DNA from: Bacillota bacterium
GTDB taxonomy: Bacteria > Patescibacteriota > Minisyncoccia > Phycocordibacterales > Phycocordibacteraceae
Direction of reading: 5' to 3'
Length of the DNA stretch: 64,000 nt
Assembly: GCA_050260455.1 (NCBI GenBank)
Contig: JBLNCF010000004.1
Location: 15,917 to 79,916 of the forward strand
The translations under genes and the position numbers were made by a program. The notes beneath the pieces are model-generated. The model saw only the letters and a list, made by a program, of their open reading frames with translations, made no database searches and was not told the DNA's origin. How positions within the stretch are numbered: position 1 is the first letter of the stretch; the number at the start of each line of letters is the position of its first letter. This document shows positions 4,444-50,462 of the stretch, piece after piece.

Positions 4444-4582
4444 GAAGGAATCTGCGCGTCCGCAATCTGGCTGTTAACACCTATTTCGGAGCACTGGTCA
4501 TAACGATAGTAGGCAGTATCGCTGCCATCTACATCGTGCATATTGGTCTCGATGCGGCGTTTCCTTCGTTTAACACGCACGC

Positions 4583-5578
4583 CTACGAGATCGAATCCAA
4601 CTTATAGCTTTCGGGAGCGTTTGCGAGGTGGCGTTCTAGCTCCTCGCGGGTCAGGAGACCTTTCTGTGCCCCAATTTCCTGTACGACTGCCATCGAATTA
4701 ATGGGAGCCCACAAGAGAGCTTCTTCAAGAGGCTTACCAAGCGCAAGAGCTGCGGTAAGGGTGGATGCGAATGCGTCACCTGCACCTGTGCGTTCGTATG
4801 CTTCGCGATCGTCTGGATACATGGGCACGTGCCACGCATGCGTCCCGTCGGAAGCGTATGCTCCGTTAGTGTTGTCAGTGATCACCACGAGCTTGGGTCC
4901 GAGCGCATGGATCCAGTCCATGAGTTCCTTGATATCGGTACCTTCCGGCTTCTCGAGAATGCGTTCAGCCTCCTGACGATTGACCACAAATAGTTCGCTG
5001 CGCTGATACAACCCCTTGAGGGCGTCGATGCCGAGCTTCATCTGGAATGTACCGGGTTGGAATGCGAGCTTGGTCTCCGGGTGCGCCTCAAGCCACGAAA
5101 CCCAGGCTTGGTGGTACGGAAGGGAGTTGGCTGCTAGTGAAGAAAGATAGATCCATTTAGGGGGTTCGGGAATCTCTGGCACCGCGTAGGTATATTCCTC
5201 GTGCTTCACGAGAATAGTGCGGTCATTATTAAACCAGAGTACGTAGTGGTAGTTAGATGATTTGCCGCGCTCCGTCACTACGAACTCGGTTGAGACACCT
5301 TCCTTTGTCAGCACTTCAAGATCGCCCCGACCGATATCGTCATCTCCGATATACGCGCAAAGTGCTGAAGAGAGGCCGAGTCGTGCGGCCGCGACAGCAG
5401 CGTTGCTTGCGTTACCGACGGCGCGGCAGAGTGTTGCCGATTCGTAGGGAATTTTATCGCCGTATCGTATGGCGAGCTTCGGGTTCTCGCTTACTGGATC
5501 GATAATCTCGGCCTCTTTCAATTTTATGAACGGTTCGGTGACAATGTCGCCGACGGCGAAGAAATCTATCTGTGACAT
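4583..5578 (-). CDS. PfkB/ribokinase-family carbohydrate kinase
   Basis: 331 aa. C-terminal GAGDAFAS anion-hole motif and N-terminal GG-type lid of the ribokinase superfamily. Convergent with the tkt genes. Confidence 0.8.
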   Translation of the reverse strand: MSQIDFFAVGDIVTEPFIKLKEAEIIDPVSENPKLAIRYGDKIPYESATLCRAVGNASNAAVAAARLGLSSALCAYIGDDDIGRGDLEVLTKEGVSTEFVVTERGKSSNYHYVLWFNNDRTILVKHEEYTYAVPEIPEPPKWIYLSSLAANSLPYHQAWVSWLEAHPETKLAFQPGTFQMKLGIDALKGLYQRSELFVVNRQEAERILEKPEGTDIKELMDWIHALGPKLVVITDNTNGAYASDGTHAWHVPMYPDDREAYERTGAGDAFASTLTAALALGKPLEEALLWAPINSMAVVQEIGAQKGLLTREELERHLANAPESYKLDSIS

Positions 5579-5617
5579 ATGGGAAGTCTAGCACGCAGTG
5601 CATGCTAGGATTGCTGC

Positions 5618-6613
5618 ATGACTGATCTCACATCCATTGCAAAAACACTCGTCGCACCAGGCAAGGGCATTCTTGCTGCTGACGAAAGTGTGCACACCGC
5701 TGATAAACGCCTCGTCGATCACGGTATCGAAGCAAGCGAAGAAATGCGTCGTCAATTCCATGATGTGTTTCTCACTGCGCCGGGCATTGAGGAATACCTT
5801 TCAGGTGTCATTCTCTTTTCCGAATCACTTACGCAGAAGGGAAGCGATGGAGCGCTATTTCCCGCGTCGCTCGCCGAGCGCGGCATCCTCCCAGGCATCA
5901 AAGTGGATGAAGGGACGGAACCGATGCCCGAGAGCTCGGACGAACTCATCACCAAGGGAGTGCTTGGTCTGTGCGACCGGTTGTCTGCCTTCAAGCAGGA
6001 ATCAGGTACCGAGTTCACAAAATGGCGCGCAGTAGTACGTATTGAAGGTGACCGACTCCCATCAGCGCAGGCGCTTGTCGAGAATGCTCGCCGCATCGCT
6101 ATCTATGCGCGCGATGTCCAGGAAGTCGGCATGGTGCCCATTGTCGAACCCGAAGTGCTCTACCAGGGTACCCACAGTCGTGTGCGTGCACGTCAGGTGC
6201 TTGAGGCAACCATGAAGACCGTGTTCGATGCACTCACTGATCAGGCAGTTGATCTATCCGGTGTCATCCTCAAGACCGCGATGACACTCTCGGGTTCCGA
6301 AAGCGGACGCATAGATACCCCAGAGGAAGTGGCGCTTGATACCGTGGAGGCCCTCATGAATACGGTACCGTCCGGGCTTCCAGGCATCGTGTTCCTCTCG
6401 GGAGGCCAGACACCTGATCAGGCGACCGCGAACCTTGCTGCCATCACCAAGGTAGCGCGCGAGAAGAATGCTCCGTGGCCCCTCACCTTCTCGTTCGCTC
6501 GCGCGCTTCAGGAGGAGGCCATACAGGTATGGGCAGGGAAGGAAGAGAATGTGCCTGCTGCCCGCGAAGCCTTCCTGGGGCGTCTCGCGAAGGTCAAGGC
6601 GGCCCTTGATTAG
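5618..6613 (+). CDS. fructose-bisphosphate aldolase, class I
   Basis: 331 aa. N-terminal GKGILAADES and the Schiff-base lysine region are typical of class I FBA. Confidence 0.88.
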   Translation: MTDLTSIAKTLVAPGKGILAADESVHTADKRLVDHGIEASEEMRRQFHDVFLTAPGIEEYLSGVILFSESLTQKGSDGALFPASLAERGILPGIKVDEGTEPMPESSDELITKGVLGLCDRLSAFKQESGTEFTKWRAVVRIEGDRLPSAQALVENARRIAIYARDVQEVGMVPIVEPEVLYQGTHSRVRARQVLEATMKTVFDALTDQAVDLSGVILKTAMTLSGSESGRIDTPEEVALDTVEALMNTVPSGLPGIVFLSGGQTPDQATANLAAITKVAREKNAPWPLTFSFARALQEEAIQVWAGKEENVPAAREAFLGRLAKVKAALD

Positions 6614-6671
6614 CCAAATCTTGCGTAAACGGCCTATTTCCGGCATACTCGCCAGGTACTGATACCTATAT

Positions 6672-7307
6672 ATGAATCTCAACGCCACTATCCGTGAGGT
6701 GACCGGCAAGATGGCCGGCAAACTTCTTTCCCGCGAGGACCGCATCCCTGCGGTCGTCTACGGTCCTAAGCAGGAGACCCTCTCTATTTCGCTGTCCCTT
6801 CCTGAATTTAAGAAGGTGCTTCGTGATGCAGGTGAATCTTCCGTCATTGATCTCAAAGGTCTTGATAAGCCGCTTCAGGTCCTCATCCATGATGTCGACT
6901 ACAACCCGGTGACGAGTATCCCGCGTCACGTCGACCTCTATGCCATCGAAAAGGGCGCCAAGGTTGAGGTTGCCGTACCGCTCTCCTTCGTAGGTGAGGC
7001 TCCGGCCGTAAAGGCAGGTGCCAATGTGGTTAAGGTCATGCACGAGCTCGAGATCGAGGCTGACGCAGCAAGCCTTCCCCATGAACTCGAAGTGGATCTT
7101 TCCGTTCTCGAGAAGGAGGGAGATCAGATTCATGTCAGCGACATCAAAATACCTGCCGGCGTAACCGTGAAGGTCGATGCCGAGGAGGTTGTCGCACTCG
7201 CCCAGGCGGTTGTTGAGGAAGTCGAGGAAGAGGGCGCAGCCCCGGACATGGCTTCCATTGAAGTGGAGCAGAAGGGCAAGACCGAAGAAGAAGAGGGCGC
7301 AGAATAA
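6672..7307 (+). CDS. rplY: 50S ribosomal protein L25 / general stress protein Ctc
   Basis: 211 aa. N-terminal L25 domain (R..GK....R..G.IPAVVYG) plus Ctc-type C-terminal domain and acidic tail. Confidence 0.85.
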   Translation: MNLNATIREVTGKMAGKLLSREDRIPAVVYGPKQETLSISLSLPEFKKVLRDAGESSVIDLKGLDKPLQVLIHDVDYNPVTSIPRHVDLYAIEKGAKVEVAVPLSFVGEAPAVKAGANVVKVMHELEIEADAASLPHELEVDLSVLEKEGDQIHVSDIKIPAGVTVKVDAEEVVALAQAVVEEVEEEGAAPDMASIEVEQKGKTEEEEGAE

Positions 7308-7388: not shown

Positions 7389-8765
7389 ATGCGTTCTCGG
7401 TTCTCGATCGCTGTCCTCTTCGTAGGGGTGCTCATCTTCGGTCTCGGCGCTGCCGCGATCATTCCGCACGCCATCTACGCACAGACCACCGCCGATAGGC
7501 GGGCAGAGCTGCAAGCACAGCTTGATGCGCTCGAGAAGGACATTGCTGCCAATCAGGCCATCGTCAATAAACTCGATGCACAGGGTAAGTCGCTCTCGAC
7601 AGAAGTGCAGACGCTAAACGCGCAGATCAAAAAGGCACAGCTCCAGGTGCAGGCGACGCAGGTTGCTATTAAACAGCTGGACAGCAATATCACGGTCCAT
7701 CAGAAGACGATCAATACACTCTCCGATAAATTGAGCAATGAGAAGGAATCGCTCGCGCAAATACTCCGCAAGACGGATGAGATTGATCACTACTCGCTCG
7801 CCGAGCTTGCGTTCTCGCGTGAGGATTTCAGCACACTCCTCGGTGATCTCGATTCGTATGCGCTTCTGAAACAGTCGCTCGGTGATTCCTACACGCAGAT
7901 CACCGGCATCAAGCTGCAGACCGAAGCGGAGAAGAGTCAGCTTGAGACGCAGTTGACCCAGCAGCAGCAGGTCGCACAGCTTCAGCTTGCTGCCAAGCAA
8001 AAGGTACAGACGCAGCAGCAGCAGAAACAGCAGCTCCTCACTGCAACTAAGGGTCAAGAAGCGAAGTATCAGCAGATTGTTGCAGCCAAGCAGAAAACGG
8101 CGGCGCAGATCCGCGCGGAACTCTTCGCTTTGGCGGGCGGGAGCGGTCCGATTCCTCTACCGACTGCAATCGCGTATGCGCAAACCGCATCCAAATTAAC
8201 AGGCGTGCGGCCCGCATTCATCCTCGCCATCCTGAAACAGGAATCGAACTTGGGTGCGAACGTCGGCCAATGCTACGTGACGGACCTGTCGACCGGTAAC
8301 GGCAAAGGGAAGAATACGGGTACTCCATTTGCAGGCGTTATGGCTGTGTTGCCTCGACGTGACGATACGGGTGCCTTCAAACGTATTACAGATGCACTCG
8401 GTCGCGACTGGTCCACCACTCCGGTGTCGTGCCCCATCGCGAGCGTCGGCGGCTACGGCGGCGCCATGGGTCCTACGCAGTTTATTCCTACGACATGGGA
8501 GGGTTCCGTCGCTCCCCAGGTTAAGCGCCTGCTCGGAGTCGCGGCAGCAGATCCCTGGAATAATCTTCATGCGATCGTGGCGACTGGCGTTTATCTGCAG
8601 GCACTTGGAGGAGCAGGAGGTTCCTACGCCGCGGAGCATACGGCAGCAGCCAAGTACTACGCGGGCGGCGGTTGGGCGGGGGGCGCGGGCCAGGCCTACG
8701 CCAACAGCGTGATGGATTACGCGGCTGAATTCCAGAACGACATCAATACGCTCGCCGGCAGTTAG
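7389..8765 (+). CDS. secreted coiled-coil protein with C-terminal lytic transglycosylase (SLT-like) domain
   Basis: 458 aa. N-terminal signal/TM, about 250 aa Q/L/K-rich heptad region, then ILKQESNLG...GAMGPTQFIPTTWE matching the SLT E-S...GxxGxxQ active-site pattern. Confidence 0.6.
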   Translation: MRSRFSIAVLFVGVLIFGLGAAAIIPHAIYAQTTADRRAELQAQLDALEKDIAANQAIVNKLDAQGKSLSTEVQTLNAQIKKAQLQVQATQVAIKQLDSNITVHQKTINTLSDKLSNEKESLAQILRKTDEIDHYSLAELAFSREDFSTLLGDLDSYALLKQSLGDSYTQITGIKLQTEAEKSQLETQLTQQQQVAQLQLAAKQKVQTQQQQKQQLLTATKGQEAKYQQIVAAKQKTAAQIRAELFALAGGSGPIPLPTAIAYAQTASKLTGVRPAFILAILKQESNLGANVGQCYVTDLSTGNGKGKNTGTPFAGVMAVLPRRDDTGAFKRITDALGRDWSTTPVSCPIASVGGYGGAMGPTQFIPTTWEGSVAPQVKRLLGVAAADPWNNLHAIVATGVYLQALGGAGGSYAAEHTAAAKYYAGGGWAGGAGQAYANSVMDYAAEFQNDINTLAGS

Positions 8766-8818: not shown

Positions 8819-9772
8819 ATGGAGAATCCGTCGAATCCGGACACCCCGGTCTTTTCTCCTCGCCTTAAGCAGGCCCTCTACGCGGCCGCAGTGCTTGCGG
8901 TCCTTATTCTCATTGCGTTATTTGCTGCATGGGTCGCACGTAAGGGTACGACTCTTCCATCCCTCGCACTTTCTGCGGGACCTGCTGGGCCGAGTCTTCT
9001 CTATGTCGCGGACTTTGATACTCACGCGCTTTCCGAGTCACCAATCACTATCAAGGATGCAGAAGGTGCTACGTTGTATGTGCTTTCCGCAGTTCGCGGG
9101 AATGGCGTAACGTATTACGCAGCGATCGCCGAGACACGCACGTTCGCCTCGAACATTTACGCAGTTGCCGATGACGGCATGGTGACGCAGCTCACCCATA
9201 CTCCTTCCGCTAAATATGAACTCTCATACAGCAATGGTGCTCTTGCGTATCGCGTGAACGATGCCAAGACGGATGCAGACCTCTTTGACCCCACAAAGTG
9301 GGAAATTGCAGAGCTCGATCTTGCGACGAACAAGGAACATCGTCTCGGAGAGGGGGAACGACCGGTCGTAACGCCTGCCGGTACGATTATTGCTGCACGA
9401 GGCGCTTCGGTAGTTTCCATCGATCCCGTGACGGGAGTGGCGACTCCACTCATGACGATCCCGAGCAACGGTTTGTTTACTGCCGATGGGGCATCACGAC
9501 TTGCCGTCCTATACGATCCCACTACGCGCACAGTTGCAGAATTCACCGTCACGGATCATGGCACATTGAGTTTCCTGCGCTCTCTCCCTGACATCGACGC
9601 TCCGATGCATATCGCGGTTGTGTCCGGAAAAGTACTCGCTATCTATCCGCAGCCGAAGCGAACCTATGTGGTGAGTGAGATCGGTCCGATCGCACACACC
9701 TCTGGGCGGATAGTATTTTCTGATGGATGGAACGCTGCAATCGTGCCGCAAGATCTCATGACACTGCCATAA
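8819..9772 (+). CDS. membrane-anchored hypothetical protein (beta-rich, propeller-like ectodomain)
   Basis: 317 aa. Single N-terminal TM (LYAAAVLAVLILIALFAAWV) followed by repetitive beta-strand-like segments. No recognisable catalytic motif. Confidence 0.45.
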   Translation: MENPSNPDTPVFSPRLKQALYAAAVLAVLILIALFAAWVARKGTTLPSLALSAGPAGPSLLYVADFDTHALSESPITIKDAEGATLYVLSAVRGNGVTYYAAIAETRTFASNIYAVADDGMVTQLTHTPSAKYELSYSNGALAYRVNDAKTDADLFDPTKWEIAELDLATNKEHRLGEGERPVVTPAGTIIAARGASVVSIDPVTGVATPLMTIPSNGLFTADGASRLAVLYDPTTRTVAEFTVTDHGTLSFLRSLPDIDAPMHIAVVSGKVLAIYPQPKRTYVVSEIGPIAHTSGRIVFSDGWNAAIVPQDLMTLP

Positions 9773-9774
9773 GT

Positions 9775-11514
9775 ATGAAACGCTTCCTTCCCATTATTCT
9801 GGTACTCGCGTCACTCCCACTTTCAGCCTCGGCTGCATTCAATTATCAATACGTCACAAACACTTACGGCTACATGAGCCGGCAGCAGCCTATTCTCACG
9901 CGTGGTGGTATATATGACTCCTACGGTACGACTATCTACAATACGAGTCCGGCTAACTATAAGCAGATTTGTCTTGATAACTCGGCAGGAGTTTCTGACA
10001 CCTCCACAAAATCCTGTTCCGTCGTGAAGTTCACCTCGGAGCCATGGAGTGGTCCCTGCGGCTGCGCGATAGCTACGCAACTCTGTGGTGGCCCGGGCAG
10101 TACCTGCGGACCGACCTACAACAGCGGGTACGTGCGCATCTTCGATAACCCAGTGTCAGCCTATTCGATCGCAGAATCGCAGGCGCAATGGAACGCGTTC
10201 GTTACCGCGCTCGGAAATGGAACCGCTACTTCCACGCCAGACATGGACGCCAATTACGACGTCTGTAATATCTCGTACGGTACCTCTGACCAGTATCATT
10301 TCGATGCCGGTATCAGCAAATCCAGCAATCAAGGTTGTATGGTTTATCAGCACACGGTGAATGGGCCGCAGCCGCCTACCGCCTCGCTCGCTGCGTATCC
10401 GACAACTATCAACGCAGGCGATGCCTCGGGCCTTTCGTATCAGTGCACCAACTCGACTTCTGCGTCTATTGATAACGGGGTAGGAAGTGTCCCGCCTCCT
10501 TCAGGTTGGCTGCAGGTAACCCCGGCTACCTCCACGACCTATACGCTTACCTGTACGGGATCGGATGGAACGGATACGGCGACTGCTACGGTCACGGTCA
10601 CGGGAACAAGCGCCTTGCCCAATCTCACCGCCGGAGCCGTGACGCCCGTGAGTGCAACCATGGGGACTCCCGTAACCCTCACCGCATCGATAAACAACAC
10701 GAGCGCAACTACGACCGGAACTGGTTTCACCAACCTCTTCCAGCGTGCAACTGATGCGAATGGTACGAACGCATCGGATATCGGCACGAGCGCCTTCTCG
10801 TCTGCGCTCCTGGGCGGCAGTTCGAAGAACGCAACCCTTTCCTATACCTTCCCGACGAGTGGCACGTGGTATGTACGCGTCTGTGCAGACAAGAATGCTG
10901 CCGGAAACAATGGAGTCATTTCGGAATCAAGCGAGACTGATAACTGCGGAAGCTGGACCGCTATCACGGTTGCCGATAGTGCGGCCACGCTCTCGTGCAC
11001 ACCCAATAAGACCAGTATTCAAAGCGGACAGAGCATTACCTGGAGCGCATCGCCGACGAATCTTGGCACCTATACTTGGTCGCCGTCGGAAGGCGGTAGT
11101 ATCTCGGGCGGTGCTTCTTATACGCGCACCTACAACACAGCAGGTGCCTACGGCATGAACGTGACGGCAGGAGGGAAGACCGCCGTGTGTTCAGCGAGCG
11201 GCAATCCGACCGTGACAGTGACCGGAGGCAATTCCTGCACAAACCCTACTGTTTCCATCGCTGCCTCGCCTGATCGTGTGGAGGGTGATGGTACGCACAC
11301 CGTCACGCTCACCGTAACCGGTTCGGGCGTTAGTGCTTCATGTCTCGTAACGGGGCCAAACGGTCTCTCGACTACGCTTTCGGCAAACTCCTGTAACGTT
11401 GCCGGCACGGTGATTAGTAAGCCCATCACCGCTCAAAGCGTCTTTACGGTCACCTGTGGAACTGCGACCGATTCGGTCATCGTTAATATCCTACCCGCCT
11501 ACAAGGAATTCTAG
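9775..11514 (+). CDS. secreted Thr/Ser-rich protein with C-terminal CARDB-like domain, paralog A
   Basis: Start taken at the internal Met (MKRFLPIILVLASLPLSASA, SPase-I type signal). C-terminal ~300 aa (LPNLTAGAVTPVSATMG...VCADKNAAGNNGVISESSETDNCGS...ILPAYKEF) is paralogous to the C-terminus of the 15479..17956 protein. Confidence 0.6.
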   Translation: MKRFLPIILVLASLPLSASAAFNYQYVTNTYGYMSRQQPILTRGGIYDSYGTTIYNTSPANYKQICLDNSAGVSDTSTKSCSVVKFTSEPWSGPCGCAIATQLCGGPGSTCGPTYNSGYVRIFDNPVSAYSIAESQAQWNAFVTALGNGTATSTPDMDANYDVCNISYGTSDQYHFDAGISKSSNQGCMVYQHTVNGPQPPTASLAAYPTTINAGDASGLSYQCTNSTSASIDNGVGSVPPPSGWLQVTPATSTTYTLTCTGSDGTDTATATVTVTGTSALPNLTAGAVTPVSATMGTPVTLTASINNTSATTTGTGFTNLFQRATDANGTNASDIGTSAFSSALLGGSSKNATLSYTFPTSGTWYVRVCADKNAAGNNGVISESSETDNCGSWTAITVADSAATLSCTPNKTSIQSGQSITWSASPTNLGTYTWSPSEGGSISGGASYTRTYNTAGAYGMNVTAGGKTAVCSASGNPTVTVTGGNSCTNPTVSIAASPDRVEGDGTHTVTLTVTGSGVSASCLVTGPNGLSTTLSANSCNVAGTVISKPITAQSVFTVTCGTATDSVIVNILPAYKEF

Positions 11515-11556
11515 TGATGGGGAAAGGGGAGTTCACGCTCCTGGTAGTATGAGCGC

Positions 11557-12456
11557 ATGGCGCAGGTAGCGCAGGCACAGGTAATTACCATCGGGACATT
11601 TGCGTTCCGGCGCGAGACGTACGAACGTCTTGCTATCGGTGCCACAACGCTTGTGTTACTTGCTGTGCTTCCCGCACGCTACTTCTTCCTCTCTTTTGTG
11701 ATGCTAGGGCAGGGGCATTTCCTCATGACCTATCTCTATCAATGGAAGGGAGGAAAGATCGGGTGGCGTTATCTCGCACTGTATGTGCCAGCCCTTCTCC
11801 TCTTGGGATACTTGGCCACCTATGTGATTCCACTTCCAGCACTTCTTCTCGTTACCGGATCGGTGTTCGCACTCCATTTCTTCTATGATGAGGCCCGCCT
11901 GTATGCGCGTGACAATTCGATATCCTTAGGCGTCGTATGGTATCCCGCTCTGCTCTTTTTTCTCGTACTCGTAAAGCTGGTGTACGGAATCGATGTGTTC
12001 CCGGCAATCATTATCGGTACGCTTCTGTTCATTCTTCAAACTGCCCGTCAGGAAGGGAAGCCAGAACCGCATTCATCAACTCATCGGTATATGCTCGTGT
12101 TCGCCACCTTTCTACTTGTACTTCTTCTTGCTCCAGCGTTCATGTCGCCGACCGCGGTACTCGGTGCCATTATTCTGTATCACTACATGAGTTGGTATGT
12201 GCACTATTTCTTCCGTCTTAGAGATGCGGGACGACCGCTTCGTCCCTACCTGGTGAATGGGGTGACTGTAAACGTTGTGGTCATAGCGCTGTTTATCGGA
12301 TTCATGGTGCTCTCGGGCCCGGGTCAGAATGCGCTTGGACTTATTTTTGGGGAGCAGTACTTCTATGTGTGGACGCTCCTGCATATTCTCTTTGCATCTA
12401 ATGAATTTATGACAGCACTCCGTGCCCAAGTGTTTGCCCGCGCACAGATGGCATGA
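11557..12456 (+). CDS. polytopic integral membrane protein (about 8 TM), function unknown
   Basis: 299 aa, almost entirely hydrophobic helices. Stop overlaps the start of the downstream Lnt-like gene (ATGA), which suggests co-translation. Confidence 0.55.
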   Translation: MAQVAQAQVITIGTFAFRRETYERLAIGATTLVLLAVLPARYFFLSFVMLGQGHFLMTYLYQWKGGKIGWRYLALYVPALLLLGYLATYVIPLPALLLVTGSVFALHFFYDEARLYARDNSISLGVVWYPALLFFLVLVKLVYGIDVFPAIIIGTLLFILQTARQEGKPEPHSSTHRYMLVFATFLLVLLLAPAFMSPTAVLGAIILYHYMSWYVHYFFRLRDAGRPLRPYLVNGVTVNVVVIALFIGFMVLSGPGQNALGLIFGEQYFYVWTLLHILFASNEFMTALRAQVFARAQMA

Positions 12457-13949
12457 GGAGTGGTCGCCTACACCAGTTCGTCTGCCAGCCTCTCGTACTC
12501 GGTCTTCTTTCGGGGGTATTGCTAGCGCTCGCTGCGCGTGTGCCCGGAGCGTGGCCTCTCTCGTTCATTGCGCTCGTGCCGGCATATATCGCGGTAGCAC
12601 AAGCACCGTCTGGTAGGGTAGTGTTCCTCTCCGGATTCGTAACTGGTCTGCCCATGATGGGAGCGGCCATCTGGTGGCTTTTTGATGCACTCCCGCTGCC
12701 ACCTGCCTTCGGCACCATTCCGCCATGGCTCGGCCTCGCCACGGTCGGTACCAGCTTTGTTATCCTCACGCTCGCTTTTGCGGCAGTGGTAGGACTTTGG
12801 GCACTGTTTTCCTATGCCATCCGAGCCTGGCGATATGGCTTACTTGCGATGGCACTCTCATGGCTCGCGTTCGAATACCTGCGCATGGTGGTATACAACC
12901 TACTCACTTTTGCGCCGCACATTGATAACGCACCCTTTTTCTCATCCGGCTTCGTGGGGTATCCGCTTGCCGACAGTATGGGCTGGGTACAGCTTGCTGC
13001 GGTGGGCGGCGTGTATACGCTCGGGACGGTTGTGGTGCTCGGGAATGCGCTCGCATATCGCATCGTGCGTTCCCGTCAGCGGAGAGTGGCATCCGGTATC
13101 GCGATGGCACTCATCATTCTTCTCGTGCACGTCGTTCCTATTGCTGCGATTCGTAGCGCCGCCTTTCCTGACATGCCTCGTCACCGTATTACCGTAGCTG
13201 CACTTTCTTTGCGAACCCCCGCGAATGCCGATCCAGAAGTGCGCGTGCCGGTAGAGGCAACGATGGTCGAATTCGTGCGGCGCGCATCTGATGCAGGTGC
13301 GGATCTCATCGCACTTCCAGAAGAATCTAATTTCCTTGCGCCGTTCTCGACACGAACACCCAATAGTGTGTTGGGGGATCGACATCGTTCGGCCATTATC
13401 GATTCAGGAACAGCACTCCTCGAGGACGGCACACGGGTGAGACGCGCACAGGCTCCAGACACGCTCGGCTTCAATACGGGACTGCTACAGGACAAACGCA
13501 TTCTCACTCCGAAGGGGGAATACTTGCCGACGCTGCTTTCCGGAATCATTACTACCCTCGGTGGTGGACAGTATCTCGATCGATTTGCAGCTAAGAGAAA
13601 CTATTCGATAGGGAAGGTAGAGATTCCGGGTACCATTGCGGGCGTGAAGTTCTCGGTGCTGCTCTGTATCGAGACCATGGAGCCTGGCCTGGGGCGAGAG
13701 GTAGTAAGAGCGCAGGGAAGCGAAATCCTTGCAGTGCTTGCATCGCATGCTTGGTTCGGTACCTCACCGTTTCTCATACAGGACACGTTTAGGCAGGCGC
13801 GTATCCAAGCCGTGGAAGCCCATGTGCCGGTCGTGCGTTCTGCTGATTTCGCTCCTGCCTACGTATTCGATGCGTACGGCCGCGTGGTGGCCTCCGGCGG
13901 ATTTGGGCCAGATCCAGACCTGGCCGTAGCTACGCTTTCCATACCGTAA
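12453..13949 (+). CDS. lnt: apolipoprotein N-acyltransferase-like protein (membrane domain + CN-hydrolase domain)
   Basis: 498 aa. N-terminal ~230 aa with multiple TM helices. C-terminal nitrilase-fold domain with Lnt-like triad contexts LIALPEES (Glu), KRILTPKGEYLP (Lys, compare Lnt K-x-hLVPFGEY-P) and VLLCIETM (Cys). Confidence 0.6.
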   Translation: MRSGRLHQFVCQPLVLGLLSGVLLALAARVPGAWPLSFIALVPAYIAVAQAPSGRVVFLSGFVTGLPMMGAAIWWLFDALPLPPAFGTIPPWLGLATVGTSFVILTLAFAAVVGLWALFSYAIRAWRYGLLAMALSWLAFEYLRMVVYNLLTFAPHIDNAPFFSSGFVGYPLADSMGWVQLAAVGGVYTLGTVVVLGNALAYRIVRSRQRRVASGIAMALIILLVHVVPIAAIRSAAFPDMPRHRITVAALSLRTPANADPEVRVPVEATMVEFVRRASDAGADLIALPEESNFLAPFSTRTPNSVLGDRHRSAIIDSGTALLEDGTRVRRAQAPDTLGFNTGLLQDKRILTPKGEYLPTLLSGIITTLGGGQYLDRFAAKRNYSIGKVEIPGTIAGVKFSVLLCIETMEPGLGREVVRAQGSEILAVLASHAWFGTSPFLIQDTFRQARIQAVEAHVPVVRSADFAPAYVFDAYGRVVASGGFGPDPDLAVATLSIP

Positions 13950-13955
13950 CTCAAT

Positions 13956-15482
13956 GTGGATAGTCTAGGAATTAAGCCGGTTTTGAATGGTACTCTGCAT
14001 GTAATGCGCGCAGTCGCTCGATTTTCCCTCGTTCTCTCACTTGTCGTCGCCGTCGCGTTCCCCTGCGCCACCTTGGCAGAAGGCACGTCCACCCCAGTAC
14101 TCGATGCACGAGGAACTCCGTATTACCCTCCATCAACACAGAAGGTCAATCTGACTGCGCAAGCGGCTTCCGCGGTAAAACCCCAAGCGACTTCGACTAC
14201 TCGCGTCGACACCGCCGGGCTCACCTCTTGTTTCGATTACTACAAATTCAACAGTACGCCAGTTGTTGTCTCCGCAGATCTCTCTTCGGTCATCGCCGGT
14301 GCGCCGCTCGGCGTAACTCTTACCGTTACCAACGAGAATCCGTATCCTATTGTCGATGCGAAGGTGTATGTGAAAGTGATGCGCTATGGATACGCCAAGG
14401 GAGAAAAGAATGTGAATGCTCCTGACATTGTCGATTTCTTCCCGGCTGGCGATCCGGTCAGTATCCCTGCAGGAGGACACGTAAACCTTTCGACTGCATG
14501 GCAGGTACCGCAGGATGCCGAAGCAGGTGACTACATGATGGCTGCATACGTTGTCTCGGCGGACCGGTTCGAGATGGAAGGTCTCACATTCACGGATGAT
14601 GTGATCGGCAGCGCATTCAATTTCCATGTCGTAAACGATACGAAGGGATCGGTTCGCTTTGATAAGAACTCTGCAACGGTGCTTAACCAGCCGTTCCGCT
14701 TCGCTGCATATCCGCCACGCATCCCTTCAAATACTAAAGATGTTCCAGTCGGCATCGACGTGGTAAACACCACGCCGCTTCCTGTCACCGAGGAAGTCAC
14801 CTGGACGCTGTATAAGTGGGATGCACTTCGTGCCGACCAGGCACTTGATCGCAAAACGGAGACCGTCACGGTCCCGGGTAATGGACGCGTGCATGTTGCG
14901 TACACCGTTACGGATACCAACCACTCCGTGTACTACCTTCTGGGAGCGGTGCGTTCCGCCGGAGGATCCTCATCGCTCGCAGGCATTCGCTTTGTTCGTG
15001 GCGATGTAAACGAACCACGTCTCAATTATGTCGGTGTAACCGGCTATCCGGCAGGGAAGGGCATATCAGCATTCGCCTGTGTACACAGTACGGGCCCGGG
15101 AACCGCAGAGAATACGAAGCTTGAGCTCGTAGCTACTCGACCTTCATTCTTCGGAATCGGTGGAACTCTCGCAAAGAAAACATATCAGGGACCGGCAGCA
15201 GGAGACATTCGTGCGCTTGTTGTGCCGTTCTCAGGTAGTGCAGACTCGTTCGCCGTGACCGCTCGATTGTTCCAGAATGGAGTTCTGGTCGACCAGGTAA
15301 CAGAGAACTATAGCTGCGCTGATCTCTCTCCTGACAGCTGTGCGAAGCGAACGATTCCGCTCGTGCCGCTTGCGATCGGTCTCGGAGCGTTCGTTATTAT
15401 CGTGATCGTTGCAGCGTTCATTATCATCCGCCGCAAGAAAGCGCCTGCTACACCCGTGACTACCGTACCGCCTACTGTATGA
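13956..15482 (+). CDS. cell-surface protein with CARDB/DUF11-like beta domains and C-terminal TM anchor
   Basis: 508 aa. N-terminal signal, repeated LTVTNENP-type beta-sandwich segments. C-terminus IPLVPLAIGLGAFVIIVIVAAFIIIRRKK is a hydrophobic helix plus basic tail. Confidence 0.55.
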   Translation: MDSLGIKPVLNGTLHVMRAVARFSLVLSLVVAVAFPCATLAEGTSTPVLDARGTPYYPPSTQKVNLTAQAASAVKPQATSTTRVDTAGLTSCFDYYKFNSTPVVVSADLSSVIAGAPLGVTLTVTNENPYPIVDAKVYVKVMRYGYAKGEKNVNAPDIVDFFPAGDPVSIPAGGHVNLSTAWQVPQDAEAGDYMMAAYVVSADRFEMEGLTFTDDVIGSAFNFHVVNDTKGSVRFDKNSATVLNQPFRFAAYPPRIPSNTKDVPVGIDVVNTTPLPVTEEVTWTLYKWDALRADQALDRKTETVTVPGNGRVHVAYTVTDTNHSVYYLLGAVRSAGGSSSLAGIRFVRGDVNEPRLNYVGVTGYPAGKGISAFACVHSTGPGTAENTKLELVATRPSFFGIGGTLAKKTYQGPAAGDIRALVVPFSGSADSFAVTARLFQNGVLVDQVTENYSCADLSPDSCAKRTIPLVPLAIGLGAFVIIVIVAAFIIIRRKKAPATPVTTVPPTV

Positions 15483-17956
15483 AACAAACCACCATCTCCC
15501 TCTTCTCATGTCTTGTAGCGCTCGCGGTGTTCGGTGGCATTGCGCATTTCGCTGATGCGGGAGGCGCAGGAACAGGAAACCAGTGGACAGGATCTCCATA
15601 CCAGAACACCAGCCTTGGTACGTACCAGCCGACCACTACAGTCTCCGGTGACGCCACCTGGAGTACGACTTTAACGGGAGTGCATCTTGCATACGCATGG
15701 AATCGCTGGACCTTGTCCGGTAAACATCCAGAGTGTTTCAGTGGTCAGACAGGGAACTTCTCGAGCGACACCATGAACTCAACCTGTGTCTCTGGTTTCG
15801 TCGAAGCGGGCTCCAATATTGCCGTCACGATCAATCAAGAAGCACGTATTTATGACGCCACCACAGGTGCAGCTATTTCTAATAACGCGACCCTGCAGCC
15901 GGGTCAGACCCTACGTCTCGAATTCAAGAAACTTGTACCGGAAAACATTCAGTGGTTTGTGACTGGCTCATCGCTTGATTCGCCGTACGGTGAATGGCGC
16001 ACCAGTGCTGCAGCACCGCCTCGCGTGTACTCAAGCAACGGAGGGATATCCGCAAATCACGTAACCTGCAACATTCGCGATTATGCCAACTCCATCGACA
16101 TCCAGGACACCTCTCGTCACGAGGGCTGTATGGAGCAACTCCGTGAGAATGCTGCCAATGCTGGATTCGCGTGTAAGACATATGGCACGGATGGTGCTGG
16201 CAACCAGGTGTGTGACGAGTACTGGTATTACTACGGGGGTCAGTTGATGTATAAAGCGACTGCAGACAATTTCTGTAACTCGAATGGCTACACAGCAGGA
16301 AGTCAGTTCAAGTTCGATGTGTATGCACCGCTCGAGATAAATCCCCCCACGCGTACGCTTACCACCGGCGGGCTCACCTGTACCTCCGCTGCCGCTGACA
16401 GCGATAGCGATCTTGCGTGGACTTGTACGGTGCCGAATTCACCGGGTACGACACTCTCACCGAAGTTCAACTACAGTTCCACCTACGGATACTTCTACTA
16501 TCGGTACTACGACTACCGCAACATGAACTATAGCGGCGAGTCGGGAAGTAACGCGGACAACTACGGCACGGCAGGATGTTATGGCAATAACATTGCGCTC
16601 TACAAGATCCGAGACAATGTCGTAAACGATCCTAATTACAATCCGGTGAACGAATACGGCCTGCATGTGGGTGATGTGGAAAGCTCCCCGTACCAGCTCA
16701 CCGTTCCTGCCATGAATGTGCCGTTCACTTTCACGGTCGCCACCCCGAACTCACCGCCGACGGCTCCGACCATTACTGGACCCACTACGGGCACGACCGC
16801 AACCAACTACACCTTCACGCTCACCAGTACCGATCCAGACAACGACACTATCCGTTATGGAGTCGATTGGAACAGCGACGGCACGCTCGATCAGTGGGTT
16901 CCTGCATCCGGCTATGTCACAAGTGGCACATCGCAGAACGCAGTGAAGCAATGGGCAAGCACGGGTTCAGTAACCTTCAAGGCACTCGCGCAGGATTCCA
17001 ACGGCAATAATTCGGGTTGGACGTCGTATACCATCACTATTCAGTCACTCCCTGACCTGACAGTGACCAGTGTAGGACCGGTCAGCGCGACGGCCGGCGT
17101 ACCGGTGACACTTACCGCGACGATAGCGAACATCGGCGCCGGCAGCACCGGCACAGGTTTCACCGATCTTTTCCAACGCGCCACCGATGCTTCGGGCGCG
17201 AACGCCACTGACATCGGCACGTACGCGTCGGGAGCGCTCGCGGGCAACAGCTCAAACACAGCGACTCTTTCCTACACCTTCCCCGCGTCCGGCACGGATA
17301 CCACATGGTACGTTCGCGTGTGCGCCGATAAGAGTTCGGCGGGAAATGCGGGAGTGATCACCGAATCGAACGAGAACAATAACTGCGCAGGCGCTTCCGG
17401 CGGCAATTGGACGCAGGTCACGGTGGGTGGTGTGAACCTGACTTGCTCCGCGAGCCCGACTACCATCACGGCACCGGCAAACTCCACATGGACCGCATCG
17501 CCTTCGAATCTGGGCACCTACACCTGGGCGCCGTCTGAAGGCGGCAGTGTCTCTACCGCAAGCAATACGTATACCCGAACGTACAGCACGAAGGGACAAT
17601 ACGGTATGAGCGTCACCGCCGGCGGTCAGACGGCTGCGTGCACCAATTACGTGACGGCCGGACCTATCTGCACCAGCCCATCCGTTTCGATAACCGCCTC
17701 TCCGGATCGCGTGGTGGGGGATGGAACGCATCGGGCCACCCTCACGATAACCGGCACGGGCATTGGCAGTGCCTGTACGATCACCGGCCCTGGCACTTCC
17801 TTCCCGCAGAATCCCGCGCCGCCTGCCAACTCGTGCAATCTCTCCACGACCATCACGACCGATCCGATCACCGCCCAGAGCACCTACACGGTGACGTGCG
17901 GCACTGCCTCCGACTCGGTGATCGTGAACGTGATACCGAAGTTCGAGGAATTCTAG
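15479..17956 (+). CDS. large secreted protein, CARDB-like C-terminal domain, paralog B
   Basis: 825 aa. Signal peptide, unique N-terminal ~500 aa, then C-terminal ~300 aa about 55-60% identical to paralog A (LPDLTVTSVGPVSATAGVPVTL...VCADKSSAGNAGVITESNENNNCAG...VIPKFEEF). Overlaps the upstream gene by 4 nt. Confidence 0.6.
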   Translation: MKQTTISLFSCLVALAVFGGIAHFADAGGAGTGNQWTGSPYQNTSLGTYQPTTTVSGDATWSTTLTGVHLAYAWNRWTLSGKHPECFSGQTGNFSSDTMNSTCVSGFVEAGSNIAVTINQEARIYDATTGAAISNNATLQPGQTLRLEFKKLVPENIQWFVTGSSLDSPYGEWRTSAAAPPRVYSSNGGISANHVTCNIRDYANSIDIQDTSRHEGCMEQLRENAANAGFACKTYGTDGAGNQVCDEYWYYYGGQLMYKATADNFCNSNGYTAGSQFKFDVYAPLEINPPTRTLTTGGLTCTSAAADSDSDLAWTCTVPNSPGTTLSPKFNYSSTYGYFYYRYYDYRNMNYSGESGSNADNYGTAGCYGNNIALYKIRDNVVNDPNYNPVNEYGLHVGDVESSPYQLTVPAMNVPFTFTVATPNSPPTAPTITGPTTGTTATNYTFTLTSTDPDNDTIRYGVDWNSDGTLDQWVPASGYVTSGTSQNAVKQWASTGSVTFKALAQDSNGNNSGWTSYTITIQSLPDLTVTSVGPVSATAGVPVTLTATIANIGAGSTGTGFTDLFQRATDASGANATDIGTYASGALAGNSSNTATLSYTFPASGTDTTWYVRVCADKSSAGNAGVITESNENNNCAGASGGNWTQVTVGGVNLTCSASPTTITAPANSTWTASPSNLGTYTWAPSEGGSVSTASNTYTRTYSTKGQYGMSVTAGGQTAACTNYVTAGPICTSPSVSITASPDRVVGDGTHRATLTITGTGIGSACTITGPGTSFPQNPAPPANSCNLSTTITTDPITAQSTYTVTCGTASDSVIVNVIPKFEEF

Positions 17957-17967
17957 TCCCGCTCCCA

Positions 17968-18010
17968 GAAACGGGCCCGGATTTGCCGGGCCCGTTTCCG
18001 TTTGGTATAG
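17968..18010 (+). terminator. intrinsic terminator after the surface-protein operon
   Basis: gaaacgggcccgg-attt-gccgggcccgtttc then CGUUUGG. Confidence 0.55.
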
Positions 18011-28126: not shown

Positions 28127-29197
28127 TTAATAGCAGTAGTACCGACCGTTGCTGTAGTACGTACCGTATCGGCAGTAGTTGCCATTGCTGTCGTAGGAAT
28201 CGTAATCCTGATTCGAAGATTCGCAGTAATAGCGACCATTCGAGTAGTAGGTGCCGTAGCGGCAATAATTCCCGTTACTATCGTACGAGTCATTATTCTG
28301 ACTCGATGTCTCGCAGTAGTAGTGGCCATTACGATAGTACGTACCGTATCGGCAGTAGTTGCCATTGCTGTCGTAGTCACGGGAAGAACTGCTCGACGAG
28401 CCGTTCAGATAGATAGAGGCCGAGTCGGTGTTGTTGTTCTCGTTAGACTCTGCGACCCGGTTGTTCGCATCCGCTTCCACGCGAATCGTTTCCGAGCCCC
28501 GGTCAGCATTATCAAATCCGAGGGTGTACACGATCGTGTCTCCTGGATTAAGCGCACGCTGCGTACCCGAGCGATATACCGACGAGCCGTCAGTAGTGGG
28601 GAGGTGAGCCTCAAACATCCATGAATTCGAGATGTTCGTGCCGCGGTTGGCAATCACGAACCGTACCGCACCCTGATATCCAGACGGAACCGTATCGTCG
28701 GTCACAAAGGAACTCGTATCGCCCTCGTTACGTAGATATCCCACCGAAGTGATGGTGGTGACAAGGTCGGCGAGACCATAGTACTGGGTACCCGGTACGG
28801 TAACGACCTGGTAAGTGGGCTGGGTATACGTTGGCGTGACCGGAGTCGGTGCGGGCGTGGAAGGAGTGGACGGGATGCTCGGTGCAGGTGCGGTCGTAGT
28901 GGCAGGGGCAGGCGAGAGCGGGATAGAAGTCGGAGTACTCGTAGAGGCAGGAGGCTGGGGGTTTTCACTCGGCTGGCCATCGTTCGGCTGGAAAAGAGTC
29001 GAAAGGTATACGTTCGCTGTACCTACGCGCGAAATGGCGCGGGGAAGGAAAGACGCCGCGTAAATAGCGGTTGCGATGCCAATAAGAATAAGGGCGATGA
29101 AGCCGACCACGGCGAGGCCGCCCACGGCCGCTTTCCGGGTCTGCTGCGTCTCGTGATCGTGATTCTGGGTCGTGTCCATATACCCGCTTATTACCAC
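28127..29197 (-). CDS. membrane-anchored surface protein: Pro/Thr linker, CARDB-like domain, 3x Tyr/Cys-rich 30-aa repeats
   Basis: 356 aa. N-terminal signal-anchor, PAPT-rich linker, domain with the ESNENNN motif shared with both CARDB-like paralogs, then 3 tandem copies of YDSNGNYCRYGTYY(R/S)NG(H/R)YYC. Confidence 0.6.
   Translation of the reverse strand: MVISGYMDTTQNHDHETQQTRKAAVGGLAVVGFIALILIGIATAIYAASFLPRAISRVGTANVYLSTLFQPNDGQPSENPQPPASTSTPTSIPLSPAPATTTAPAPSIPSTPSTPAPTPVTPTYTQPTYQVVTVPGTQYYGLADLVTTITSVGYLRNEGDTSSFVTDDTVPSGYQGAVRFVIANRGTNISNSWMFEAHLPTTDGSSVYRSGTQRALNPGDTIVYTLGFDNADRGSETIRVEADANNRVAESNENNNTDSASIYLNGSSSSSSRDYDSNGNYCRYGTYYRNGHYYCETSSQNNDSYDSNGNYCRYGTYYSNGRYYCESSNQDYDSYDSNGNYCRYGTYYSNGRYYCY
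28130..28395 (-). repeat. coding tandem repeat, 90-bp period x3
   Basis: gtaccgtatcggcagtagttgccattgctgtcgta recurs at about 28161 and about 28341 with a variant copy between. Encodes the Tyr/Cys 30-aa modules. Confidence 0.85.
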
Positions 29198-29291: not shown

Positions 29292-29948
29292 ATGTCCGGA
29301 CATCAGCCCGCAGGGCCGCATAACCGCGGCAGCAAGAATCCGTACCGAAACACGTGGACCTTCCTCGTGGTCGCGTTCGTTGTCTTTGGGGCGACGGTAT
29401 TTGTACTGTCATCCTTCGACTTGCTTCCGGATTCATCGCTTCGGGGAACGACCGCACCTACCGCATCCGATACAAAGAACGCGGATGCGCTCACTGGTGC
29501 AGTGCTTCCCGAAAAGATCGAAATTCCGAAGATAAAGTTGTCGGCAACGGTGGCCAATCCGACCACGACTGATGCGGATGTGCTTGATAAGGATCTGCTG
29601 TACGGAGCGGTACGGTATCCGACATCGGGCGGACTGGGCGCGAACGGCCAGAATGTCGTCCTCTTCGGACACTCGAGTTATCTTCCGGTCGTGCACAATC
29701 AGGCGTATAAGCTCTTCGACGGCATCCAGAACCTGACGAAAGGTGACCAGATTCTAGTCACTGGCAACGGCACGGTGTACGTATATCAGGTGGATACGGT
29801 CGCGAGTGCTGATGCAGAGACGGACGGTATTCCGCTTACCGTGTCGGGCAACCAGCTCACGCTTGTAACGTGCGATTCGTTCAAGACAAAGTCGGATCGG
29901 TTCGTTGTGGTCGCACATCTTGTGAATAGGTATCCGGCTGCGAGCTAA
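29292..29948 (+). CDS. sortase family transpeptidase
   Basis: 218 aa. N-terminal TM anchor. His (VVLFGHSSY), Cys in TLVTC and Arg (DRFVVVAHL) form the sortase catalytic triad. Confidence 0.82.
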   Translation: MSGHQPAGPHNRGSKNPYRNTWTFLVVAFVVFGATVFVLSSFDLLPDSSLRGTTAPTASDTKNADALTGAVLPEKIEIPKIKLSATVANPTTTDADVLDKDLLYGAVRYPTSGGLGANGQNVVLFGHSSYLPVVHNQAYKLFDGIQNLTKGDQILVTGNGTVYVYQVDTVASADAETDGIPLTVSGNQLTLVTCDSFKTKSDRFVVVAHLVNRYPAAS

Positions 29949-30043: not shown

Positions 30044-31243
30044 ATGGTCGACAATGGAAGTTGGCGACGGCGGCTTCGACGAGAGTATGGAGTGCCCGGC
30101 TGGGTGCTCTGGCTTCTCGCGGCTGTCGTTGTGATAGTGCTGATCGTGCTGGCCTTCACTCATCGTAAGGACATCGCCGCAGCACTTCATCTCGGTCGCC
30201 CACCAGCGGCCGCTCAAGCTCCGCAGCCGGCTGCTTCTTTGCCGCCGGAACCGCAGAAGCTTCTCACGGCGAACGACGGCCCGGCATTCCATGCCGTACC
30301 TCCGCCGCCCAAAGCAGGAACGCGAGCGTCGGCGCCAAAGCCGGCACCGCGATCTCCTGCGCCGACAGTACCGCGTCGTCCAGCTTCACCGCGCACGGGA
30401 ACTCCCGTAGTGGCGCAGCCTCGCGTGCCCTCCGGTCCCTGCACCCCAGGAACCGCGCTCGTGTGGCGTCACTCCGGTGGCGATCCGTACGCGCAGAACG
30501 AGAAGGAGGCCTACTCTGACGCCAAGCTGGATACGATGCTTGCCTGTAACGGTATCCCGCGTGAAGACTGGGCCGCCATCAAGCAGTACGTGCGTAATGC
30601 TGACAACGGCGCAAAAGTCGTGCTGAAGGAAGGTGGCCACTTCGCGACCATGATGTCCGGCAACGGGCACATGTTCCGGAACGGGACCGTCGCTATTCCA
30701 GGCGGTCAACGCGCGCTCGAGTTTGATGTCGAAGTGAACGGCCACCGGTACATCCTGGTCCTGCCCTTCGGGTGCTGGAACTGGATCGTCCTCGAGACGC
30801 CGCTCATTCAGCCTCCGGACTCGGACTGCATCACCCTCTCGTTCAACGCGGAAGAGGGTGGGCATGTGCGGTGGGGAATCGGCAGTGCCGAGGGCCCCGT
30901 CCCGCCTGATTGGTGCAACGCCCAACGCGAAGGCGAAGGACCGTGGCACGCATGGTGGGGCGAGTGCGACTGGTGCAAGCCAGCCCTGGCGTATATCCAG
31001 CGGATACTGGGGCCAAGTGCCCGGGTATACCACCGGTACTACTATCCCGTGAAGGAACGGCATCAGACGCTCCGCTTCTCGCGGGACATCTACCGCCAGG
31101 TGGTCTACATCTGTCTGGAGCATGCCAACAACGGAGGCAGGTCCTGCGGCGTCTACATGCGTCCGGAGGACTGGAAGGGGAGAACGCACGTCGAGATCCC
31201 CGACTCCCTCTGGCGGGAAGATAATGGTGACTGTCCCCACTAG
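30044..31243 (+). CDS. type II membrane-anchored protein with Pro-rich linker and Cys/Trp-rich ectodomain
   Basis: 399 aa. TM (WVLWLLAAVVVIVLIVLAF), about 100 aa P/A-rich linker, C-terminal domain with 12 Cys and many Trp. No known catalytic motif. Confidence 0.5.
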   Translation: MVDNGSWRRRLRREYGVPGWVLWLLAAVVVIVLIVLAFTHRKDIAAALHLGRPPAAAQAPQPAASLPPEPQKLLTANDGPAFHAVPPPPKAGTRASAPKPAPRSPAPTVPRRPASPRTGTPVVAQPRVPSGPCTPGTALVWRHSGGDPYAQNEKEAYSDAKLDTMLACNGIPREDWAAIKQYVRNADNGAKVVLKEGGHFATMMSGNGHMFRNGTVAIPGGQRALEFDVEVNGHRYILVLPFGCWNWIVLETPLIQPPDSDCITLSFNAEEGGHVRWGIGSAEGPVPPDWCNAQREGEGPWHAWWGECDWCKPALAYIQRILGPSARVYHRYYYPVKERHQTLRFSRDIYRQVVYICLEHANNGGRSCGVYMRPEDWKGRTHVEIPDSLWREDNGDCPH

Positions 31244-31375
31244 GGGACCGGGTTGGGAGGTGGTTCGCGCCGCGAGCCACCACCCAACTCTTTTTGTACG
31301 CCTCCGGCGAACGCTAGGAGGCAGGGGCGTTCATTAATTTCTTACCATTCACTTAGCAGTATCAAGAACAAGAGT

Positions 31376-50245: not shown

Positions 50246-50462
50246 TTCTCAAACTGTAGCAAATGACGCTGGTTTTGCTATGATGCGACCGGCCCCACTG
50301 TTGGGACCCATGCGCTGCAGGCACAGCGCGGGGCGGCAGATCGTTCTGAGCAGCTCGGTCTGCCGCCCTTGGGTCCTCGGCCCTGTACCTTCCTCCCGCG
50401 GCAGAGATGTCGCGTTTTTTATTTGACCCCGCATAGCCTTTCTGGTACGCTTCCCCGCATAT

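Follow-up and report, generated by a model that had tools for sequence, protein, structure and literature searches.

The locus described here lies within a stretch of 64,000 nucleotides of contig JBLNCF010000004.1 (the window, meaning the whole stretch analysed) and consists of packed genes for two secreted surface proteins, A and E, for the single-pass membrane proteins encoded directly in front of them, A0 and D, for a polytopic membrane protein, B, and for C, a homologue of apolipoprotein N-acyltransferase (Lnt). A preliminary description made from the sequence had grouped A to E as five tightly packed genes on one strand. The packing on the + strand was found as described, each open reading frame (ORF) lying where it had been placed, whereas the count was not, as A0 joins A and makes the packed genes six. 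The stop codon of A0 lies 2 nt ahead of the start of A, a gap of 42 nt separates A from B, B and C overlap by 4 nt (ATGA), as do D and E (4 nt), and the gap between C and D is 6 nt if D starts at GTG 13956 and 54 nt from ATG 14004. The six genes and their features are as follows.

8819-9772, + strand: A0, 317-aa single-pass membrane protein, partner gene of A
9775-11514, + strand: A, 579-aa Sec-secreted protein
11236-11511, + strand: C-terminal domain (CTD) of A, last 92 aa with four conserved Cys, placed by alignment; the hidden Markov model (HMM) of the CTD reaches the last residue
11488-11511, + strand: tail of A, VNILPAYKEF-COOH
11542-11550, + strand: extended -10-like motif TGGTAGTAT, 6 nt 5' of the start codon of B
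11557-12456, + strand: B, 299-aa polytopic membrane protein of an orphan family
12453-13949, + strand: C, 498-aa Lnt homologue (LNT_N and CN_hydrolase)
13323-13325, 13494-13496 and 13665-13667, + strand: catalytic codons of C for E291, K348 and C405, respectively, placed by alignment
13988-13996, + strand: extended -10-like motif TGGTACTCT, 7 nt 5' of ATG 14004
14004-15482, + strand: D, 492-aa type-I membrane protein, partner gene of E
15479-17956, + strand: E, 825-aa Sec-secreted protein
17051-17389, + strand: CARDB domain of E (Pfam)
17669-17953, + strand: CTD of E, last 95 aa
17930-17953, + strand: tail of E, VNVIPKFEEF-COOH

From its N-terminus, A carries a signal peptide, a variable region, a CARDB domain, a PKD-like domain and the CTD, and E carries a signal peptide, a conserved region of ~500 aa, a CARDB domain, a PKD-like domain and the CTD. 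The C-terminal parts of the two proteins had been called paralogous, which our alignment confirmed (56% identity over 340 aa, E = 3e-105), while their N-terminal parts are unrelated (~15% identity). The CARDB-like character ascribed to both also held, as CARDB (PF07705) scored 25.9 bits in A and 38.6 bits in E, above the Pfam gathering threshold of 22.7 bits. Among the sequence blocks said to be shared, VCADK and FQRATDA are present in both proteins, whereas ESNENNN is found only in E and A has ESSETDN in its place; the tails are nearly identical, as described, A ending in ILPAYKEF and E in VIPKFEEF. The ESNENNN domain had further been assigned to the protein encoded at 28127. This protein has a CARDB domain (Pfam, 7e-8) and no BLASTP similarity to E, so the supposed third occurrence is only the generic CARDB signature. 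The gene (28127-29197, - strand) encodes Tyr-rich repeats (NGNYCRYGTYYSNGRYYC) and no CTD.

The CTD is an Ig-like domain of ~92 aa with four conserved Cys and the consensus end D-S-V-I-V-N-V-I-P-x-F-x-E-F-COOH. No model of Pfam or NCBIfam, sorting-signal models included, matched it, and it is a new, undescribed family without a model in either database. A metagenome scan with CTD patterns from which the FxEF part had been left out recovered the family at 32 further loci, in all of which the CTD forms the very end of the ORF. The domain stood at the extreme C-terminus in 45 of 45 proteins, with zero residues after the tail in 41 and at most one in the other four. Conservation among 40 distinct tails of 14 aa was high at N(-9) (39/40), P(-6) (35/40), F/Y(-4) (35/40), E(-2) (33/40) and F(-1) (37/40). 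Among 3160 ORFs the tail motif stood at a C-terminus in 36 cases and at an inner position in a single case, which was a spurious ORF, and it occurred in 0 of 609 ORFs of at least 150 aa that lack the CTD; its occurrence is far beyond chance. Conservation of the tail outside this genome, which the preliminary description had named as a check, was thus found at many Parcubacteria loci. The CTD also ends unrelated architectures, e.g. the Tyr/Gly-repeat proteins P0162 and P0163. These two (P0163 being L019, 3146-3997) are small secreted proteins with repeats of the GYYYGQGYYQ type and a CTD ending in IPRFFIF.

D-E and A0-A are copies of one two-gene cassette made of a membrane protein and a secreted CTD protein. 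The cassette was found at about 30 Parcubacteria loci, at most of which neither Lnt nor B lies nearby. Nearly all non-redundant CTD genes for which upstream sequence was available were directly preceded, on the same strand, by the gene of a single-pass membrane protein; the partner is a D-type or other protein with a C-terminal transmembrane segment (TM), an A0-type protein or a small protein with an N-terminal TM. The paired genes often overlap and often stand in tandem arrays (L025, L035, L044, L046). These arrays hold two or three cassettes with mixed D-type and A0-type partners, and CTDs within one array are up to 80-90% identical. The placement of the cassette varies: in L046 (D identity 43%) a pair of D-E cassettes lies between L25/SLT and prfA, at a locus that lacks both B and Lnt, in L048 D-E stands by itself between PGM and SpoU, also without B or Lnt, L034/L036 carry the cassette near uvrB-like genes, and in L001 A0-A is placed after E, not before B. 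The gene order, the recurrence of which had been proposed as a check, was kept as B-C-D-E in three close relatives (L001, L003, L007) and broken up in other relatives. The collinearity of the three with the window extends through the entire region, so the kept order says little about function.

D is composed of a signal peptide, a disordered linker, three to four beta-sandwich domains, a TM (residues 453-479, nt 15360-15440), RRKK and a short Pro/Thr-rich tail. It had been introduced as a beta-rich protein of 508 aa anchored by a C-terminal TM and RRKK; the anchor was confirmed, whereas the length was not, the start being more probably ATG 14004 (492 aa), which agrees with the NCBI protein P0164 and with the extended -10-like motif 7 nt upstream. 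The AlphaFold2 model (pLDDT 87) predicts a stalk of beta-sandwich domains on the C-terminal TM, and its best Foldseek matches, RbmA and macroglobulin MG domains, are generic. Although TM and RRKK are present, D has no LPXTG-like motif. The D family numbers 50 homologues, every one from Patescibacteria, and D homologues lie directly upstream of CTD genes in L001, L015, L020, L023, L025, L046 (twice) and L048. D is not a lipidation cargo, but the membrane-anchored partner co-encoded with E throughout Parcubacteria. A0 has an N-terminal signal-anchor (~residues 17-40) and a beta-rich ectodomain. Its HMM matched the genes that immediately precede CTD genes in L015, L018, L020, L025 (twice) and L035, and the orthologues of A0 and A are kept together in L001. 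Comparison of the two partners by hhalign (probability 2%) ruled out D and A0 as homologous docking partners.

CTDs proved more similar within a locus than between loci (median identity 63% vs 39%). Between the E orthologues of the window and of L001, the N-terminal part (~500 aa) is 73% identical and the CTD only 45%, whereas the CTDs of A and E are 60% identical in the window and 60-66% within each of the two genomes. Over the C-terminal 330 aa, E (15479-17956) is 45-48% identical to its L001 counterpart (4565-7027) and closer to its same-genome paralogue A. This pattern indicates that the C-terminal modules are concerted or co-evolving within a genome. A and E have not undergone recent gene conversion, as the two share 63% nucleotide identity and no word longer than 11 nt. 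Identity was the same whatever the partner type (D-D 41.0%, A0-A0 41.3%, D-A0 40.9%); CTDs do not cluster by partner, which excludes a CTD sequence specific to the partner type. Given that D and A0 are not homologous, the invariant tail cannot dock into a homologous site in both. Together, the closeness of CTDs within a genome, the lack of sorting by partner and the lack of homology between D and A0 point to a shared target, which could be a receptor common to all or the CTDs themselves in contact with each other, and away from a partner-specific docking site.

The genes between the two cassettes are of a different kind. C had been called Lnt-like, and it matched both LNT_N (PF20154; 1e-14, 55 bits, cut-off 27.1) and CN_hydrolase (PF00795; 5.8e-7, 29.6 bits, cut-off 23.2), while its score against TIGR00546 was 113.4 bits, below the equivalog cut-off of 132.9. 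Alignment with E. coli Lnt from NC_000913 placed E291, K348 and C405 of C at E267, K335 and C387, so that the E-K-C triad is intact, as the preliminary description had anticipated; the triad is invariant in four orthologues of C, and the positions of E. coli E343, E389 and W415 are conserved as well. C deviates from the E. coli enzyme at Y388, which is Ile, and at W237, which is aligned to Pro in a poorly aligned region. Hydropathy analysis detected no hydrophobic segment past residue 232, the protein ending in ...ATLSIP, so C lacks the C-terminal TM8, which the E. coli enzyme has, as do the Lnt proteins of L012 and L039. The Lnt of L032 (120-1613, - strand) also lacks TM8. PDB Lnt chains were not reached from C by phmmer or by a profile search with four sequences. 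Like the Lnt of E. coli and the actinobacterial Lnt/Ppm2, C combines a polytopic LNT_N part with an extracytoplasmic CN_hydrolase domain, the triad and further conserved residues; unlike them, it scores below the TIGR00546 cut-off, has neither TM8 nor the Tyr at 388 and is translationally coupled to the orphan B. The intact triad, the sub-cut-off score and the missing TM8 suggest that C is a catalytically plausible but divergent Lnt. An Lnt in a monoderm has a precedent, the enzyme being known from monoderm Actinobacteria. A literature search on Lnt or Lgt in bacteria of the candidate phyla radiation (CPR, or Patescibacteria) returned nothing relevant.

B had been described as a protein of eight TMs. 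It is polytopic, whereas the exact number did not hold, as hydropathy gives 7 strong segments and the AlphaFold2 model (pLDDT 83, pTM 0.80) 10-12 helices. B was unmatched in Pfam, NCBIfam and the PDB: the profile of B returned nothing from PDB sequences at E <= 10, and the best Foldseek match of the model in the PDB had E = 0.07 and a TM-score of 0.2. A relationship to Lgt (PF01790) was ruled out, since there was no Pfam match and hhalign against E. coli Lgt gave a probability of 0.06%. The B family comprises 359 cluster representatives of ~280 aa each, and 48 diverse members share G51, H54, F55, H107, D111, H209, W213, Y214 and H276 without exception. In L005, L006, L009, L011 and L013 the B-family gene adjoins, and often overlaps, the gene of a UbiA prenyltransferase; the pair in L005 is flanked by an OlsE-like hydroxylase and a polyprenyl diphosphate synthase. 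In L012 it stands beside a PAP2_C gene, next to which lies a convergent Lnt gene, and in L010 it stands alone, with no lipid-transferase neighbour. The pairs with UbiA (five loci) and with PAP2_C (one locus) are translationally coupled, and these loci may represent an uncharacterised isoprenoid or lipid pathway. A locus search with alignment A1 returned one GTDB genome locus. Coupling of a UbiA enzyme to a polytopic four-His protein is known from CtaB (UbiA family) and the heme A synthase CtaA. The B family is similar in its size (~280-300 aa), in having H54, H107, H209 and H276 on separate helices and in being usually UbiA-coupled; it is different in that neither B nor 10 family members matched CtaA/COX15 (PF02628) in Pfam at E <= 1, and its UbiA partners resemble archaeal-type prenyltransferases, not heme O synthase. 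Another family linked to lipids, the archaeal lipidation enzymes AliA/AliB (arCOG02177/02178), was newly described (PMC12462473). We conclude that B is a lipid-associated membrane protein and not a surface-protein factor. At the window edge, shortly ahead of the gap gene, there is a partial second paralogue of the B family; the genome thus encodes two or more members, and of the two in the window only B is coupled to Lnt. Its equivalent in L003 (3-680) matched the B-family HMM with E = 4e-32.

Analysis of the N-termini of A, D and E, the supposed cargo, revealed no conserved lipobox. The pattern [LVI][ASTVI][GAS]C was not found at the signal-peptide end of any of the three: A has no Cys in residues 1-60, the early Cys of E (C11) lies inside the h-region, and the early Cys of D stands in AFPC, with Pro at -1, and is absent from D homologues. 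With A lacking a lipobox and D and E lacking a conserved one, the three proteins are not classical Lnt substrates.

The extended -10-like motif TGnTAnnnT occurs 29 times in the window, and 12 of these occurrences lie 6-11 nt ahead of a start codon (of ORFs of at least 80 aa), where ~0.1 would be expected by chance. The 12 starts include those of B (11557), D (14004), the SLT gene and rpmE. Start-linked motifs were located at 271, 2594, 7369, 11542, 13988, 18003 and 39325 on the + strand and at 50261, 39289, 35811 and 5593 on the - strand. The pattern suggests internal promoters as well as mRNAs with a very short leader or none, and such starts would be a common promoter architecture here. The motifs 6-7 nt ahead of the starts of B and D argue for separate transcription units, which are likely A0-A, B-C and D-E, the same as the evolutionary modules.

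The best reading of these data is that two two-component surface structures flank a general lipid or lipoprotein acyltransferase pair; we give a probability of roughly 0.55 to the locus being three adjacent modules (A0-A, B-C and D-E) in a conserved envelope neighbourhood and not one system. In each cassette, a single-pass membrane protein is translationally coupled to a Sec-secreted multi-Ig/CARDB protein without an anchor of its own, and the membrane protein is most likely a base on the cell that holds this co-translated protein at the surface. The CTD, which ends in a free Phe, would most likely be a shared module for assembly or retention, the tail presumably mediating assembly, and would touch either a shared envelope component or the CTDs of its sister proteins; closer CTDs within a genome and the lack of sorting by partner fit such a shared target. 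B and C most probably form an enzyme pair for membrane lipids or lipoproteins at large, probably without specificity for A, D or E, and B may deliver or take away a lipid that its partner enzyme uses or makes. The Sulfolobales build a two-component S-layer, in which SlaA forms the canopy and SlaB the membrane stalk. The cassette is alike in that a large, secreted, beta-rich and anchorless protein is co-encoded with a D-like beta-sandwich stalk on a C-terminal TM; it differs in showing no relationship of sequence or fold to SlaA/SlaB, in that any lattice would be putative, in the N-terminal anchor of A0-type partners and in the presence of several different cassettes per genome.

Several observations weigh against the three-module reading. 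Binding of a membrane partner to its CTD protein is inferred rather than observed, and D and A0 have no detectable homology (hhalign, as above). The similarity of CTDs within a genome did not arise by recent gene conversion. Lnt adjoins CTD cassettes in two more lineages, L032 and L038/L039, so that some functional link is conceivable; the cassettes and Lnt genes of these lineages share the ancestral SLT-prfA neighbourhood. No Lgt or LspA homologue and no ORF with a canonical lipobox was found in the 64-kb window or in the related loci, so that a housekeeping lipoprotein role for C is putative; the absence from these 64 kb says nothing about the rest of the genome. Finally, no terminator-like structure was detected between A, B, C and D, the only hairpin lying after E, which makes co-transcription by read-through possible.

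A more far-reaching proposal, which we put forward tentatively, is that the VNVIPxFxEF-COOH tail on the four-Cys Ig-like domain is an unrecognised, Parcubacteria-wide surface display signal; A0-A and D-E might then be building blocks of a CPR surface layer or of host attachment. The free C-terminal Phe would be needed and would be read by the co-encoded membrane partner or by a shared envelope receptor. A more radical extension would have the TM8-less Lnt and the four-His B modify the surface apparatus or its lipid attachment site. CPR bacteria are tiny and mostly uncultured, many are thought to be attached to host cells, and their lipid synthesis is generally thought to be limited. Luef and co-workers reportedly saw an S-layer on CPR cells in 2015; a literature search on Parcubacteria S-layer proteins returned nothing relevant. 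How these bacteria build their envelope and retain proteins on it is little understood, and the CTD with its membrane partner offers a concrete handle on surface display. The CTD could serve to predict the surface proteome from sequence, and the B family may point to how CPR bacteria handle or remodel lipids.

We consider it unlikely that the CTD is a true sorting signal for a common machinery, leading to processing or to covalent attachment to the wall or S-layer with the membrane proteins as accessories. Its strictly terminal position and near-invariant terminal Phe, a tail that is alike whatever the partner family, its presence on unrelated N-terminal architectures including P0162 and P0163, and CTDs closer within a genome than between orthologues, as a shared receptor would predict, all agree with such a signal. 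However, no candidate machinery was found alongside the cassettes in related loci, no known sorting-signal model was matched, and the near-universal co-encoded membrane protein would be left unexplained. The sortase of the window (29292-29948) requires a motif with a TM and basic tail behind it, an arrangement that is absent from A and E; no signal of the sortase or exosortase type was detected in either, as no hydrophobic segment follows ...EF and NCBIfam gave no match. Models of the CTD of the type IX secretion system (T9SS; Por_Secre_tail/TIGR04183) likewise had no Pfam or NCBIfam match in A or E at E <= 0.1. To our knowledge, neither a T9SS nor an outer membrane is expected in CPR bacteria. 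The CTD resembles the T9SS CTD, LPXTG/sortase signals and PEP/PEF/PGF-CTERM as a conserved module at the extreme C-terminus of diverse secreted surface proteins, and it shares with the T9SS CTD an Ig-like beta-sandwich of ~90 aa. Unlike sortase, exosortase and archaeosortase signals, it has no TM helix or basic tail and ends freely in ...FxEF-COOH, and unlike known C-terminal sorting signals it is co-encoded, in nearly all cases, with a single-pass membrane protein. A passage on the CPR lineage describes it as monoderm (PMC8871954, citing Luef et al. 2015).

Still less likely, in our judgement, is that nothing special is involved, the tail being the last strand of a lineage-specific Ig-like domain and the gene pairs and the adjacency of Lnt being inherited synteny. 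The CTD HMM does match internal Ig-like repeats of the same proteins, all loci with visible flanks share the same L25-SLT-...-L31-prfA region, and the interaction of D with E or of A0 with A stands as an inference. Yet the internal repeats have no tail, while at the C-terminus at most one residue follows it; the cassette has been duplicated in tandem as a unit; stop and start codons overlap; and the cassette is also found elsewhere, in L048 and in L034/L036. The proposal of the preliminary description, a dedicated system in which B and the Lnt-like enzyme acylate A, D and E, e.g. at the new N-termini left by signal-peptide cleavage, and thereby anchor them, is very improbable: the overlap of B and C with D and E close behind on the same strand, the B-C-D-E order in L001, L003 and L007, the Lnt genes beside CTD genes in L032 and L038/L039, the intact triad of C and the lack of another visible anchor in A and E speak for it, but the genes separate in related genomes, most D-E and A0-A cassettes stand without Lnt or B, in the B family at large the link is with UbiA or PAP2_C and not with CTD genes, no lipobox is conserved in D or E and A has no early Cys, promoter-like motifs precede B and D, and the relatives that keep the order are collinear region-wide, so that their synteny is unspecific. 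A private Lnt for two surface proteins is an attractive but unsupported idea.

The neighbourhood reads L25 - SLT - cassettes - L31 - prfA - rpsB and is marked as an envelope neighbourhood by the SLT gene; the same L25-SLT-prfA arrangement was found in L003, L007, L029, L035, L046 and L047. Further features of the window that belong to it or bear on the genes above are listed here.

1-246, + strand: partial second B-family paralogue at the window edge (B-family HMM, E = 6.7e-14)
7389-8765, + strand: coiled-coil protein with an SLT_2 lytic-transglycosylase-like domain (Pfam and NCBIfam matches)
17968-17998, + strand: hairpin directly 3' of E, terminator-like, with a 13-bp stem of which 10 pairs are G-C, followed by a promoter-like site of rpmE

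The homologues carry the names Candidatus Paceibacterota, Kaiserbacteria, Parcubacteria group, Patescibacteria group and Nomurabacteria, and because of these names we place the window in Parcubacteria (CPR). The metagenome-assembled genome from which it comes is labelled 'Bacillota bacterium' at NCBI (ACM3TU_00255, ACM3TU_00265), while synteny and all homologue names are those of Patescibacteria/Parcubacteria; the label is probably wrong. A separate surface-protein locus in the window consists of the sortase gene and, after it, two large ORFs (399 and 821 aa) within 30044-33718; the second of these, of 821 aa, has an I-set Ig match.

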